From: a virus
Lineage: Duplodnaviria; Caudoviricetes
Virus record (IMG/VR): IMGVR_UViG_3300042332_000520
Coordinates: 1-53,828 of that record
DNA: 53,828 nt
Reading direction: 5' to 3' (one strand)
The notes beneath the pieces are model-generated. The model made no database searches. It was not told where the DNA came from and saw only the letters and a list, made by a program, of their open reading frames with translations. This document shows, piece by piece, positions 38,838 through 47,384 of this stretch. The stretch's first letter is position 1. Each line of letters opens with the position of its first letter. Position numbers and translations under genes: made by a program.

Positions 38838-38923
38838 TGGTGGGCACTCTAGGACTCGAACCTAGTAGTCTTTTGGACGGCGGATTTACAGTCCGCTGCA
38901 GTCACCAGTGCTGCTCAATACCC
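38838..38923 (-). tRNA. tRNA-Tyr(GUA)
   Basis: GCGGA-CTGTAAA-TCCGC arm, GTTCGAG T loop, CCA. Confidence 0.9.
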
Positions 38924-38954
38924 TTTGTTGTTTGCTATTTGCGAATAGCGAATA

Positions 38955-39032
38955 TGGTCCGTAATGAATGATTCGAACATTCGATATCTCGGCCCCAAAC
39001 CGAGTGACTTAACCAGACTAGCCTAATTACGG
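38955..39032 (-). tRNA. tRNA-Pro(UGG)
   Basis: CTCGG-TTTGGGG-CCGAG arm, CCA. Confidence 0.9.
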
Positions 39033-39041
39033 ATGTTAAGA

Positions 39042-39117
39042 TGGCGTATCCCGTAGGAGTCGAACCCACAACCTGCGGATTTGGAATCCGCCACTCTGCC
39101 AGTTGAGTTAGAGATAC
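39042..39117 (-). tRNA. tRNA-Trp(CCA)
   Basis: GCGGA-TTCCAAA-TCCGC arm, CCA. Confidence 0.9.
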
Positions 39118-39123
39118 ATTTGT

Positions 39124-39201
39124 TGGCAGAGGATACTGGATTCGAACCAATGATACTAATTTCAAAGACTAGTGCTTTAGGCCAGACTAAGCTAATCCCC
39201 A
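39124..39201 (-). tRNA. tRNA-Gln(UUG)
   Basis: CTAGT-CTTTGAA-ATTAG arm, CCA. Confidence 0.88.
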
Positions 39202-39207
39202 ACAAAC

Positions 39208-39299
39208 TGGCGGAAGATACAGGATTCGAACCTGTGGGACAGCTTTCGCCGCCCTATTGTTTAGCAAACAACCGCAATCGGCCTCTCTGCCAATCTTCC
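39208..39299 (-). tRNA. tRNA-Ser(GCU)
   Basis: GTTGT-TTGCTAA-ACAAT arm, long variable arm, CCA. Confidence 0.9.
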
Positions 39300-39304
39300 T
39301 TATT

Positions 39305-39379
39305 TGGCTGGCAAAAGTGGGATCGAACCACTGACCGGACGGTTAACAGCCGTCTGCTCTACCTCTGAGCTATATGCCA
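39305..39379 (-). tRNA. tRNA-Asn(GUU)
   Basis: GACGG-CTGTTAA-CCGTC arm, CCA. Confidence 0.9.
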
Positions 39380-39384
39380 AAATT

Positions 39385-39552
39385 CTTCCAACTGTTACCT
39401 TATGCTCTTTCCGTTGGCGATTGAGCAGCCGAACTTTTTACGTAGTTGACGAACCCTTAGGGACGTACAGCGGAATACACGTTTATTGGAAAGTTCCGAT
39501 AGCACCCATCGTCACTAACAACCGTTGAATGGATGATCCTACCAGTTCCATT
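39385..39552 (-). ncRNA. candidate structured ncRNA within tRNA array
   Basis: Ends pair (AACTG 39390-94 with CAGTT 39543-47); internal GAACTTT/AAAGTTC helix; flanked by tRNAs. Confidence 0.4.
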
Positions 39553-39560
39553 ATTTGCCT

Positions 39561-39636
39561 TGGTGACCTCACCGGGATTCGAACCCGGCTTATCTGCGTG
39601 AAAGGCAGATGTTCTAACCTACTAAACTACAAGGTC
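39561..39636 (-). tRNA. tRNA-Glu(UUC)
   Basis: TCTGC-CTTTCAC-GCAGA arm, CCA. Confidence 0.9.
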
Positions 39637-39644
39637 ATATTTAT

Positions 39645-39728
39645 TGGTGCTTCAGGAGAGACTCGAACTCTCAATCCTCTCGGCATTGGTTTCTAAGACC
39701 AACGTGTATACCATTCCACCACCGAAGC
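39645..39728 (-). tRNA. tRNA-Leu(UAG)
   Basis: TTGGT-CTTAGAA-ACCAA arm, variable arm, CCA. Confidence 0.9.
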
Positions 39729-39730
39729 TT

Positions 39731-39806
39731 TGGTACGGAAAACTGGACTTGAACCAGTGACCTGTCGCTTATCAAGCGAATGCTCTACCAACTGAGCTAT
39801 ATCCGT
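39731..39806 (-). tRNA. tRNA-Ile(GAU)
   Basis: TCGC-TTGATAA-GCGA arm, canonical D arm, CCA. Confidence 0.9.
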
Positions 39807-39819
39807 ATTATATTGTATT

Positions 39820-39904
39820 TGGTGCTGAAGGTGAGACTCGAACTCACGTAAGATTTCTCTGACGGCTTACAAAACCGTTGCAATTGCCGCTATGCGACTT
39901 CAGC
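39820..39904 (-). tRNA. tRNA-Thr(UGU) with long variable arm
   Basis: ACGGT-TTTGTAA-GCCGT arm; 14-nt variable region; CCA. Confidence 0.8.
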
Positions 39905-43983: not shown

Positions 43984-44103
43984 TGAGGGTTTAATGTCTG
44001 GTGAGCGTTCGGGCCAGTGCCGCTAGGTAAGCTGCAGCGCATACGGTAAGGACAATCGCCCATAATACGGCATACCCTGCGACGATGCATAAAATGATTG
44101 TCA

Positions 44104-44799
44104 TCATGCTGCAGCTTTCTGCAGTCGTATCACTTTCTGCATTTTGCGCCCGTGGGCAGGGTAAGCTATAACGGCGGTCCCTTTGTCCCAGCATGCTCGG
44201 CATCCGTTGCATTTGCCGCCTCTGCTGTAGGCTTCGCATACGGTCACACCTTCGGGGATATCCTGCGGGTCTGCGCTTGCCGTTATTGTGCTGCCGTGAA
44301 GCCCTGCCGTAAACTCGCCCGTGATGCTATCGCTTGAAAATCGAACGCTAACATTAGGAAGGTTTTGCATGCGCTGCAATGCTGGGTGCCACTTGTCAAA
44401 CTTCATCATGCGGGTAGGTAGCCAATGCATGCACCATGGGGTTTGCTGCATCACTTGGAAAACCTTTTCCGCCAGCTTTACGCTGAAGAGGTCGCCCGAG
44501 TCCAGCCATCGAAAATAGCGGTCGTTTTGTAGGGCTTTCACCATGTCGCTAACCCAATCGGGGCGGGTCCAGTCCTCTTGGTTGTGCTGCCGTGGGGCTT
44601 TCACGTTCGGGTAATTGTAATTTCCGGTTGTTGCATAACATCCAGAGCATGCGGGGACTAGTTCTCCGCCATTGGTACGGCTTCCGGGGCATGTTGTAAG
44701 GGCTTCAAGGGACCATGAACGGATGCCGTCAAGCTTAGATGTGATGCTGATACGGGGGCCGCTGGTGGGCTTCGTGGTGGTTTTGCTGACTTTGATCAT
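44104..44799 (-). CDS. Gp88-like (radical-SAM-related, Cys-rich) phage protein
   Basis: SWSL...TCPG...C.GCYA..GNY, FRWLDSGD, HWLPTR and C...GKC.GCRACWD motifs. Confidence 0.75.
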   Translation of the reverse strand: MIKVSKTTTKPTSGPRISITSKLDGIRSWSLEALTTCPGSRTNGGELVPACSGCYATTGNYNYPNVKAPRQHNQEDWTRPDWVSDMVKALQNDRYFRWLDSGDLFSVKLAEKVFQVMQQTPWCMHWLPTRMMKFDKWHPALQRMQNLPNVSVRFSSDSITGEFTAGLHGSTITASADPQDIPEGVTVCEAYSRGGKCNGCRACWDKGTAVIAYPAHGRKMQKVIRLQKAAA

Positions 44800-44828
44800 G
44801 TTGTGACCTTTGGTTGTCTACTGGTGGG

Positions 44829-45041
44829 TTATGCGGTGGCGGTGTCTTGCTCGCTCATTCGCTGCAGCTGGCCGTGTGCGGTGTCGATTGCGTCCTGCTT
44901 GTCTTCTGTGTGGTAGTCGGAATTTTGCAAGTGCTGACCGGCTTTATAGAATTTAACCCGGTATTCGTTCCAGTCGGTGTCCTTGTAGATTTTGGCGGTT
45001 GTTTCGGCTGCTGCTTTGTGGATGGTGTTAATGAGGCGCAT
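44829..45041 (-). CDS. hypothetical protein
   Basis: KIYKDTDWNEYRVKFY...DYHTEDKQDAIDTA; 70 aa. Confidence 0.7.
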   Translation of the reverse strand: MRLINTIHKAAAETTAKIYKDTDWNEYRVKFYKAGQHLQNSDYHTEDKQDAIDTAHGQLQRMSEQDTATA

Positions 45042-45107
45042 GGTTAGGCTTTCAAGGTTTGAGGGGGTGATGGTACCCCGGTGGTTTTCCGGGGTCTTGG
45101 TGGTGGT

Positions 45108-45335
45108 TTAACGGGCGAATTTAACGGCGAATTGTCTCAGCTGGGCGGTGCATGCGTTGCGGATTTTCTGGTGGTGCTGACTGGTGTTGTAGTGCATCAC
45201 CTGAGTGCCTGCCTTAGTGGTTCCCAGATACTGGCCTTTCACGCCGTCCAGCTGCTGCACCCATTGGCCCGGTTTTGTATTGGCGGGGATATCGGCGAAG
45301 GTGGAAACCTGAATTGTTTTGGTGTACTTTTGCAT
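45108..45335 (-). CDS. hypothetical protein
   Basis: MQKYTKTI...KPGQWV...KGQYLG; AAAGG RBS. Confidence 0.65.
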   Translation of the reverse strand: MQKYTKTIQVSTFADIPANTKPGQWVQQLDGVKGQYLGTTKAGTQVMHYNTSQHHQKIRNACTAQLRQFAVKFAR

Positions 45336-46080
45336 GATAGTGTTACCTTTTGTTTTCAAATTTAGATGAAGTGGCTGATCAAGGGGAGAATTGCAAACCA
45401 GAGTATTACATTTGCGAGAATGAGGATTTGATTGTCTGACATTTTCATTTTCTCCAGTTAATAAATAATCCATTGATTTTTAATGCGGCAAAATCTAGAA
45501 ATCTTGCCATTATTAGAAAATCCTAAGCATGAAAATTCTAGGCGTTCTCTAATGGCTTGAATTAATGCATTTTCTGATTCTAATTTGAAATTCATCATTT
45601 TGTGAACCTTTGTTTTCAAGAGTTTTGGGGTAGTGTATACCTTTGTTCGCATACACTATAGAAAACTCTCAATTTTTAATGAACTGTGAACCTTTGTTTT
45701 AAGGTTCTGAGGGCCAGTCCGATCACTGCCGCCATGTGTTCAATTATATCGGGTAATGTGTTGTTTTGACGCAACAATGCATTTATTTTTATAGGATAAA
45801 CCCTATGTAAACTTCTGTTTTCAATTTTGGGTTATTTCCTGCCTTATATAGAGGAAAGTGAACCCTGCATTTTGAGAACTTCTGTTTTCAACTGTAAAAA
45901 GTTATCCACATGTTATTAGTCTTATATAAGAGTTAAAATTGTGGATAACTATAACTAGTGCTGTGGATAACTTTTTCTGAGGGGGTAGGTGCTGCGGGTG
46001 CTTTGTGGGCCTTGCTGGTCGTTCTAGAGCGTTCTAGCGGCATGTCTTTTCATACAGTATTCATTTTGGGCGTGTAATAC

Positions 46081-46095
46081 TGGCACGGTTTTTGC
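46081..46095 (+). promoter_or_regulatory. sigma54 (-24/-12) consensus site
   Basis: TGGCACG-N4-TTGC; no downstream + strand gene. Confidence 0.6.
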
Positions 46096-46342
46096 GGTTG
46101 TAAACTTTTGTTTCTCATTTATTATTGCAAACAAAATAGTTACATTTCCAGCTGATGCATAAATTGTAACAAAATGTAACAGTGTCAGCTTCATGTAAGC
46201 TTCGCATGCTAGGTCCAGGATGTAGTACTTTTGTTTCTTATAGCATTTTGTGAACCAGAGTATTACATTGTAAGGTTTGCGTAAATTGTAACCAATTGTA
46301 ACAAATTGTAACTGTAAGCTTCTTGTAAGGTTTCTGTGCTAA

Positions 46343-46362
46343 TACTGGGTTTTCATACAGTA
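46343..46362. promoter_or_regulatory. LexA (SOS) box
   Basis: TACTG-GGTTTTCATA-CAGTA matches TACTG-N10-CAGTA; imperfect second copy at 46040-46059. Confidence 0.65.
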
Positions 46363-46616
46363 GTACCTTGGTTTCTCATATGGATTTGAAAACAAAATAG
46401 TTACATTGTGGATAAACCTGTGGATAACCTGTGGATATGTGGATAACCCTGTGCATAACCTGTGGATAACTCGGGATAACCTGTGGATAACTCAAAATGA
46501 GTACTTTGGTTCTCAAATCGCCCAAAATCCATTAGTTTTGAGCATTTTATTTCCGTAGACCCCCAAGGGTTTTTTAGTCAAAAATTTTCTGCACCTCCCT
46601 ATGGGTTTTTAAAACA

Positions 46617-46648
46617 GAAAAACCACCAAGGATTTCTCCAAGGTGGTC
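46617..46648 (-). terminator. intrinsic terminator ending the early unit
   Basis: ACCACC...GGTGGT stem with U tract on the minus strand. Confidence 0.7.
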
Positions 46649-46667
46649 TAGGGGTTTTTAGTTCAGT

Positions 46668-47090
46668 TTAATTCTTGAATTGATAGGGTTTATTCCAACG
46701 ACCAAGACGCATACTAACATAATAAGCGCAATGGAAATAATCAGTCATGAGATCAGATTTATCCCAATGATCAACCATCATGATAGCCTTGGCTTTCTCC
46801 AGATACTCCAGAGCTTTACCTTCAAAAGAGCTGTCAAGAAAATAGTGATTGATATTGATATTGCCAGTTTCTTTTGCATAGCTGATTACAGCCTCAATAT
46901 CACGCAATGAACGCTTAGTTGTAATGGTATTAGCAAAGCTTTGAATGAAGTCAATACTGCCTTCTGAAACGGTCAAGCACAGTTGACTACCACCTTTACC
47001 TGACAATGTAGCCTTAACACCGTACTCTTTGTTCAAAGCCTTCAAAGCAATACGAGCTTTGTTGATGGTTTCTTCGGTAACGTAAGCCAT
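46668..47090 (-). CDS. hypothetical early protein
   Basis: MAYV...KYGVK.TL...D.SD.MTDYFH..YY.....G.WNKPY pattern seen in phage early proteins. Confidence 0.75.
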   Translation of the reverse strand: MAYVTEETINKARIALKALNKEYGVKATLSGKGGSQLCLTVSEGSIDFIQSFANTITTKRSLRDIEAVISYAKETGNININHYFLDSSFEGKALEYLEKAKAIMMVDHWDKSDLMTDYFHCAYYVSMRLGRWNKPYQFKN

Positions 47091-47153
47091 GATGATTTCC
47101 TTGATGAACAATCCTGATAAGGGTTGTGATTTTGTTTGGTTGGTATGCCTAGA

Positions 47154-47384
47154 TTATAGCACAACTTTGCCAGTTTTATCAACAACGCACAATTTTCTTA
47201 CGTTGCTACCTTTTTGTTTCCACAGCTCATACATTGCACGACTGATGGCATGACCTAAGATACTGATGCGAGTTTCACGGGTAGGATGTGTAACCATAAC
47301 TAGGTCTAATTCGATTCTTTTAAAACGAGCAATTTTGATTGCTTGATCAAGTTGAATCTCATACTGAAGGCGAAGATTGTGCAT
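47154..47384 (-). CDS. hypothetical early protein
   Basis: AAGGAAA RBS behind a repeated promoter element. Confidence 0.65.
   Translation of the reverse strand: MHNLRLQYEIQLDQAIKIARFKRIELDLVMVTHPTRETRISILGHAISRAMYELWKQKGSNVRKLCVVDKTGKVVL

Follow-up and report, generated by a model that had tools for sequence, protein, structure and literature searches.

A gene-free region in a DC31-like phage

We analysed a 53,828-base IMG/VR virus contig from a freshwater phage (record IMGVR_UViG_3300042332_000520, estimated to be 67% complete), which as a whole is called the window here, and we concentrate on one non-coding region within it, 45780-46520, that is dense in boxes of the kind bound by the bacterial initiator DnaA. 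The phage is close to Limnohabitans phage DC31 (76 kb): the large terminases of the two share 86% identity, and the same comparison with Curvibacter phage P26059A gives 48%. DC31 is reported to have a long tail and a G+C content of 37.6%, and its host one of 59% (PMC12195039). The neighbouring genes on both sides of the region are all on the minus strand. To the right lies a conserved 140-aa gene (46671-47090, minus strand; phrog_10415) that has no functional assignment, and to the left lie small genes and a GP88-family gene. Using the right-hand gene as an anchor, we collected 14 viral loci, nine close and five distant, and added DC31 to them.

Does the region hold a gene after all? The initial annotation of this DNA had found no credible one, and this judgement stands. 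Open reading frames (ORFs) within the region are only 30 to 56 aa long, and tblastn searches with the ORFs of either strand matched the relatives at similar scores. Hence, conservation is at the level of the DNA, and we rejected the small ORFs as genes. The equivalent region of DC31, 930 bp, has no annotated coding sequence at all. An Rfam scan of 44800-47200 returned a single sub-threshold match (E = 0.62), located at the terminator described below, and no known RNA family.

The sequence of the region is not an assembly artefact. An independently assembled contig of 7,686 nt, from the probable source run, covers 44000-46861 without differences. A 151-nt contig from a second sample is identical over 46424-46574, and a diverged relative spans 46402-46593 with its array of DnaA boxes retained.

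DnaA boxes, the sigma54-type element and accompanying features

When we read the sequence, every motif that the initial annotation had listed was present at its position, and the claim of a dense, non-random array of DnaA boxes was borne out. All eight perfect DnaA boxes (TTATCCACA) of the window lie inside 45902-46490, with none elsewhere. Markov simulations gave a mean of 0.59 perfect boxes per window, and 0 of 100 reached eight. When up to one mismatch was allowed, we counted 27 matches against a shuffle mean of 16.5, a number reached by none of 100 shuffles. The evidence that the cluster is far beyond chance is overwhelming.

Three of these boxes form a core at 45896-45976: TTATCCACA on the plus strand at 45902, the palindrome CTTATATAAG at 45921, and TTATCCACA on the minus strand at 45940 and 45962. 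Within these roughly 80 bp the boxes face inward around the AT-rich palindrome, the 15-bp arms (AAAAAGTTATCCACA and TGTGGATAACTTTTT) are perfectly inverted, and the centre is a very AT-rich stretch of 29 bp. No 30-mer in 45000-47200 is less stable than this centre (45910-45939), which belongs to the least stable 0.5% of the window. The centre lies on the same side of both box sets as the unwinding element does in the spacers of the Thermus and Deinococcus origins.

The tandem array (46407-46490, minus strand) consists of eight head-to-tail boxes, five of them perfect (46407, 46419, 46438, 46461 and 46482), one TTATGCACA (46450) and two degenerate (46430 and about 46471). Their start-to-start steps are 12, 11, 8, 12, 11, 10 and 11 bp, and repeat analysis assigned the array a period of 11 with 7.9 copies.

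About 160 bp from the core lies a sigma54-type -24/-12 element, TGGCACGGTTTTTGC (46081-46095, plus strand). It matches TGGCAC-N5-TTGC exactly, with GG and GC ten bases apart, and is the sole exact match in the window; of 100 simulated windows, 6 contained this exact pattern one or more times, and its one-mismatch count is not above chance. The GG-N10-GC signature is conserved in nine of nine aligned sequences, and in four of these the DNA upstream has been deleted or replaced. Since the signature is kept where its flanks vary or vanish, selection appears to act on the sigma54-type element itself.

Here the element points away from the DnaA core and against the flanking genes. The unit made up of core and element (45896-46095) is inverted with respect to DC31 and the IMG/VR relatives and is oriented as in P26059A; this inversion is why the element runs opposite to the flanking genes in our phage, where it has also lost its native stretch downstream. 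The initial annotation had described a sigma54 site with no gene to drive. That is so in this phage, where the element points against the genes, but seven of eight relatives do have downstream genes for it to drive. Core and promoter have retained their mutual arrangement despite the inversion relative to DC31. The element would fire away from the core in both orientation states, which suggests that the two work together.

A Sigma54_activat domain, the mark of enhancer-binding AAA+ ATPases, was found in none of five phage genomes, so that a host activator would be needed. In our literature search we met no account of lytic phages whose genomes carry sigma54 promoters. The dependence of phage Felix O1 on RpoN was not used as a parallel, as the source attributes it to glutamine supply and RpoS (PMC8744999). 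We also considered TGGCACG...TTTTT, flagged by a consensus scan, as an intrinsic terminator and rejected it because the stem is not kept in L004 or L007, two of the relatives' loci.

Much of the remaining region is built from repeats. By alignment, 46040-46500 (plus strand) is a triplication of a unit of about 130 bp; the three paralogous copies, A, B and C, measure about 123-138 bp (repeat families D2, D3 and D6). Each holds an inverted pair of a motif of about 20 nt and then a short helix-phased array. In units A and B the arrays are of TGTAAC (period 10) and TGTAAG (period 11); in unit C the array is that of the eight DnaA boxes. At 46283-46330 (plus strand) AATTGTAAC, which occurs four times in the window, stands three times at period 10 (46283-46312) and is followed by TGTAAG-N5-TGTAAG (46313), with a weaker copy of the arrangement at 46161-46203; these hexamer repeats are phased at 10-11-bp steps. 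We take the TGTAAC/TGTAAG arrays to have an OmpR/PhoB-type look (GTTACA-type half-sites). They were not seen in the relatives' regions that we read, where no pattern search was made for them.

A LexA-like palindrome, TACTGGGTTTTCATACAGTA, lies at 46343-46362 and has the form TACTG-N10-CAGTA, an exact pattern that occurs once in the window. It had been taken for a LexA box, an identification that does not hold up: its core is CTGG-N8-ACAG and not the consensus CTGT-N8-ACAG, and the exact consensus core is found nowhere in the window and in none of ten relatives' regions. The palindrome falls where unit C aligns to the sigma54 segment of unit A. A LexA-like pattern occurs at least once in 14 of 100 simulated windows, and its one-mismatch count is not above chance. 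Like the sigma54-type element and the palindrome ATAGG-N6-CCTAT (45791, read from the sequence and present once in the window), it is individually rare and was picked post hoc. The density that had been claimed for the motifs exceeds chance in the case of the DnaA boxes but not, with one mismatch allowed, in the case of the sigma54 and LexA patterns.

The motif of about 20 nt (TTGAAAACAAAGGTTYACA-like) has at least 13 copies, in both orientations, in 45338-46520. At 13 bits or more a scan with a position weight matrix (PWM) found 11 sites in this interval and 2 in the other 52.6 kb of the window; the PWM was built from the same copies, so only the scarcity of the motif elsewhere is informative. 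Relatives have 0 to 4 copies per 2 kb. Copies lie directly 5' of the start codons at 45598 and 45335. We rejected the motif as a general ribosome-binding site or promoter, there being only two strong copies in the other 52.6 kb, and as a sigma70 promoter, there being no -10 hexamer at the correct spacing in the sequence as read. Folds of the inverted pairs as RNA hairpins were unconvincing (z = -2.2 and 0.09). The motif may bear some likeness to OmpR or TyrR-type sites.

The two edges of the region carry signals of transcription. On the right, just 3' of the 46671-47090 gene, an intrinsic terminator (46612-46649, minus strand), a hairpin followed by UUUUUCUGUUUU, closes the upstream (rightward) operon; its fold has -19.7 kcal/mol and z = -4.0, and none of 200 shuffles folded as well. 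Three GGGTTTTT(A) motifs, TAAAAACCC on the gene strand, lie at 46566-46660 (repeat families D16 and D17), and reading of DC31, L004, L007 and P26059A showed AAAAAYCY motifs at the equivalent position. On the left, an element with a TATAAT -10 hexamer (45743-45774, minus strand), read from the sequence, is directed toward the downstream small genes. L007 has TGATATAAT in its place, in a conserved block of about 150 nt. We infer that 45743-45774 is a promoter; a consensus scan raised no flag there. A leader hairpin follows at 45631-45658 (minus strand; -12.8 kcal/mol, z = -3.75), upstream of the first downstream gene (ATG 45598). It too lies within the block of about 150 nt conserved with L007, and its stem is retained in DC31 (L017 4068-4095) by way of two compensatory pair changes.

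Among the neighbouring genes, the phrog_10415 protein has an invariant D-x-S ... DYF-x-CA-x-Y motif close to its C-terminus. The small proteins neighbouring the region matched no Pfam family at useful E-values. The stretch 44001-45000 has 54% G+C, against about 38% elsewhere, and GC and AT skews opposite to those of other minus-strand genes; it contains the GP88-family gene (44104-44799), which may be a recent acquisition. Farther off, at 38838-39904, ten tRNA genes are clustered on the minus strand, with genes for PhoH, a ClpP-like protease and a macro-domain protein nearby.

Layout in relatives and tandem arrays elsewhere

The core is found in DC31, in seven of nine close IMG/VR relatives and in Curvibacter phage P26059A, and is missing from all five distant loci. 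One of the two close loci without it, L005, has a homing-endonuclease insertion, and the contig stops before the region. Homing-endonuclease-like genes, read from the sequence, lie between the anchor gene and the control region in L009 (4585-5069) and in L005 (from about 4582). Three complete relatives and DC31 each have a single cluster of perfect boxes and, besides it, at most one stray single box.

The layout is common to the close relatives. Along the gene direction, it starts with the terminator and several AAAAACC-type motifs, followed by a slot for a tandem array. Next comes the core, with three DnaA boxes, CTTATATAAG and two boxes of the opposite strand in this order, and about 125-160 bp on comes TGGCAC-N5-TTGC, pointing downstream. 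The layout ends with a CGCGTGCG-rich stretch, a TATAAT-like element, the conserved leader and the small genes. Alternating CGCGTGCG-type tracts stand 3' of the sigma54-type element in relatives, and a similar tract (L020 540-610) lies upstream of the DnaA-type array of Microvirus mar31.

What fills the slot differs between loci. L004 and L007 have 16-bp TATATAAG-type repeats, L008 has a 49-bp repeat, and DC31, L003 and L009 have CAGTCA-type repeats of 21-22 bp. We take these 16-, 21-22- and 49-bp repeats beside DnaA boxes to resemble the iterons of plasmid and P1 origins. The initial annotation had proposed relatives as a check on whether the site types persist. The sigma54 GG-N10-GC signature is kept throughout the nine aligned sequences, but the LexA core is absent from all ten regions compared, and OmpR-like arrays were not seen in the regions read. 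On this sequence comparison, the eight-box array, the TGTAAC/TGTAAG arrays and the LexA-like palindrome appear to be mostly lineage-specific.

The repeats at the ends of the relatives' contigs represent either overlaps left by assembly (55 and 127 nt) or a tandem repeat. In relative G003, the direct terminal repeat given by IMG/VR (L024 end / L023 start) is a 49-bp tandem array containing CTTATATAAG, and is probably an assembly break in the repeat rather than a true terminal repeat.

Arrays like that of our phage occur well outside this family. A blastn search with the region matched DnaA-box arrays in unrelated phages, and a pattern scan for three consecutive perfect DnaA boxes matched at least 120 viral contigs with tandem arrays and at least 120 bacterial contigs. 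Among the 120 viral arrays listed, there are 3-7 perfect boxes per array, 284 of 311 steps are 11 or 12 bp, and 28 arrays lie within 400 nt of a locus end. Two phages have arrays no more than about 210 nt from the ends of their records, which are perhaps not physical ends: Klebsiella phage ZK1 of the Molineuxvirinae (L018 640-830) and the T7-like Shigella phage A7, a Berlinvirus (L019 700-830). A microvirus carries twelve TGTGGAAAA repeats. Among six bacterial loci picked by hand, the array stands beside dnaA or dnaN in five; in the sixth it stands beside yidC at the start of a complete chromosome. Spacers of the Thermus and Deinococcus chromosomal origins combine boxes, a triplet run and an AT-rich stretch. 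The arrays at bacterial dnaA and dnaN loci and in these spacers indicate that the 11-12-bp spacing is a real origin architecture. By its pattern, the window's array is a large member of this recurrent class. In our literature search, tandem DnaA-box arrays came up solely in connection with the T5 stop signal and where origins had been predicted as a matter of routine.

A candidate replication origin and control hub

What is the region for? Most likely, this DC31-like phage has here its chief non-coding control hub, with an origin joined to promoters. More specifically, we regard the region with moderate confidence as a predicted host-DnaA-dependent replication origin and transcription hub, with the tandem array as a presumed accessory platform onto which DnaA is loaded. 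We favour an origin because the least stable DNA, the core centre, is on the origin-like side of the boxes and because relatives encode a helicase and DNA polymerase A but no DnaA-like domain: among five phage genomes, a gp4-like helicase was present in four and DNA polymerase A in three, and the DnaA-like DNA-binding (C-terminal) domain in none. The window itself, 67% complete, showed neither gp4-like helicase nor polymerase A. The phrog_10415 protein was considered as a possible initiator; its predicted structure is confident (pLDDT 87), and it gave no PDB fold match at E <=0.001 and matched no Pfam family. A predicted origin with DnaA boxes has been reported, together with 628-bp terminal repeats, for a related Pseudomonas phage (PMC11512268).

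If the region is an origin of this kind, host DnaA would bind the core and open its AT-rich centre. Transcription from the adjacent promoter could aid this opening or supply a primer, and the phage helicase-primase would then load onto the opened DNA. The slot beside the core would gain and lose short helix-phased arrays; in this lineage it contains eight DnaA boxes at steps of about 11 bp, which as an accessory platform would raise local DnaA occupancy. As the copy number of the phage genome rises, the array might also drain DnaA from the host.

Among the closest known parallels are the DnaA-oligomerisation regions of chromosomal oriC, such as that of E. coli. Those of Thermus and Deinococcus have the same clustered TTATCCACA boxes, head to tail at 11-12-bp steps, in sub-arrays of opposite orientation, and the spacing of the array here matches that of the DnaA oligomer scaffolds of chromosomal origins. 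Unlike chromosomal origins, the region has no run of DnaA trios and no adjacent dnaA or dnaN, and it belongs to a lytic phage group with its own helicase and polymerase. In plasmid origins and in P1 oriR, DnaA boxes adjoin AT-rich DNA and arrays of short direct repeats, and further arrays lie beyond the minimal origin. Compared with these, no initiator gene was identified here, the repeat unit varies by lineage, and the array is one of host DnaA boxes.

Several observations weigh against an origin at this site. The close locus L009 has the repeats and the sigma54-type element and no DnaA box, either there or in the rest of its 39-kb contig (49% complete), so that the boxes may be dispensable. 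The eight-box array was not found in DC31 or in nine close relatives, and hence is not essential to the family. DnaA trios are part of the basal unwinding system beside a box, and our reading of the sequence beside core and array found no run of trio-like triplets. The sub-arrays converge on the 29-bp AT-rich centre, whereas in oriC the unwinding element lies outside. The replication genes are 20-26 kb from the region, and GC skew does not switch at the core. In two complete relatives, as in the window, skew simply tracks the strand on which the genes lie, and we regard it as uninformative about origins.

Perhaps the region serves transcription control alone, as a terminator, promoters and operators between two operons, where DnaA and a protein that binds the motif of about 20 nt would act as regulators and slippage would have produced the arrays neutrally? 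The terminator upstream and leader hairpin downstream, the conserved TATAAT element with the sigma54-type element, the motif copies just 5' of the start codons at 45598 and 45335, and arrays that are different in every lineage would all suit this role. However, boxes facing inward around the least stable DNA of the region make an unusual promoter layout, the inverted sigma54 unit cannot drive downstream genes and yet is perfect in consensus, and a diverged relative retains the DnaA array. We think this explanation unlikely. A distinctly unlikely one is that the eight-box array is chiefly a DnaA sink, by which the multiplying phage genome soaks up DnaA and halts host initiation. Its model would be datA, a cluster of high-affinity boxes that is not an origin; datA depends on IHF and stimulates the hydrolysis of DnaA-ATP. 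Like datA, the cluster could bind many DnaA molecules: each genome copy carries eleven consensus or near-consensus boxes, the array has been added to a core already present in relatives, and tandem arrays recur in many unrelated viral contigs. The same architecture, though, serves real origins, the array is missing from most relatives, and a lytic phage with its own replisome has no evident benefit from a sink.

Two further proposals came from the initial annotation, which saw in the region either a landing pad for genome entry or a decoy for several host regulators. T5-like phages are reported to have a large untranslated region in which DnaA boxes occur together with repeats and palindromes, and a DnaA-based injection stop has been proposed there (10.1101/866236; PMC13250531). 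A similar genome-entry or genome-end element, at which membrane-bound DnaA holds or pauses the entering DNA, strikes us as very unlikely here. The comparable T5 region is likewise a large untranslated stretch with DnaA boxes 2-3 bp apart, direct and inverted repeats and palindromes; arrays lie near the record ends of the T7-like Shigella phage and the Klebsiella phage and close to the locus end in 28 of the 120 listed viral cases, and in complete relatives the region is flanked on one side by small genes over about 13 kb. But T5 has its eight boxes in pairs 3 bp apart inside the inverted repeats IRC/IRD, within a 10-kb terminal repeat (10.1101/866236), whereas this phage has a tandem array and a three-box core instead of four pairs in inverted repeats. 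Moreover, no long terminal repeat is evident, the relatives' end repeats are accounted for by assembly overlap or tandem repeat, and by its large terminase the phage groups with others whose terminal repeats are reportedly short. As for the decoy, a sponge titrating DnaA, LexA, RpoN and envelope-stress regulators together, all four motif types do lie within 741 bp and each is individually rare. The initial annotation had itself named loss of the non-DnaA sites in relatives, and a DnaA-dependent origin, as outcomes that speak against it, and by this yardstick the decoy fails. The LexA-like site lacks the consensus core, falls in alignment on the sigma54 segment of the repeat unit and has a counterpart in none of ten relatives, and OmpR-like arrays were not seen in the relatives' regions read. 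A single sigma54 site cannot titrate holoenzyme, and the region is rich in repeats, from which the motifs were selected post hoc. The architecture of the region fits a DnaA-dependent origin. We conclude that the multi-factor decoy is largely not supported, and a sponge acting on all four regulators is barely plausible.

If the region is an origin and hub, the slot beside it invites a wider proposal, which we make tentatively and regard as rather doubtful. DC31-like phages would keep a fast-evolving slot beside the origin core, each lineage with a different helix-phased motif array, and the host DnaA box would have been captured here; taken with the at least 120 viral contigs, this would be a widespread and largely undescribed strategy to seize or drain the host initiator. 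Such a strategy, if true, might start phage replication, silence the host origin or hold entering DNA, and some of the contigs that carry arrays may be small genomes, the size of a microvirus.

Few environmental lytic phages have a known origin, and the region is a concrete, testable candidate in a family with a cultured member, DC31 on Limnohabitans sp. DCL3. Its core would be compact, with boxes facing inward around a putative unwinding element, and would be linked to a conserved sigma54-type promoter in phages that encode no activator themselves. Among close relatives the contents of the adjoining array slot change, and tandem DnaA-box arrays with 11-12-bp steps are common in viral contigs. 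Should such arrays manipulate DnaA, phages would have in them a general interface with the replication control of their hosts.

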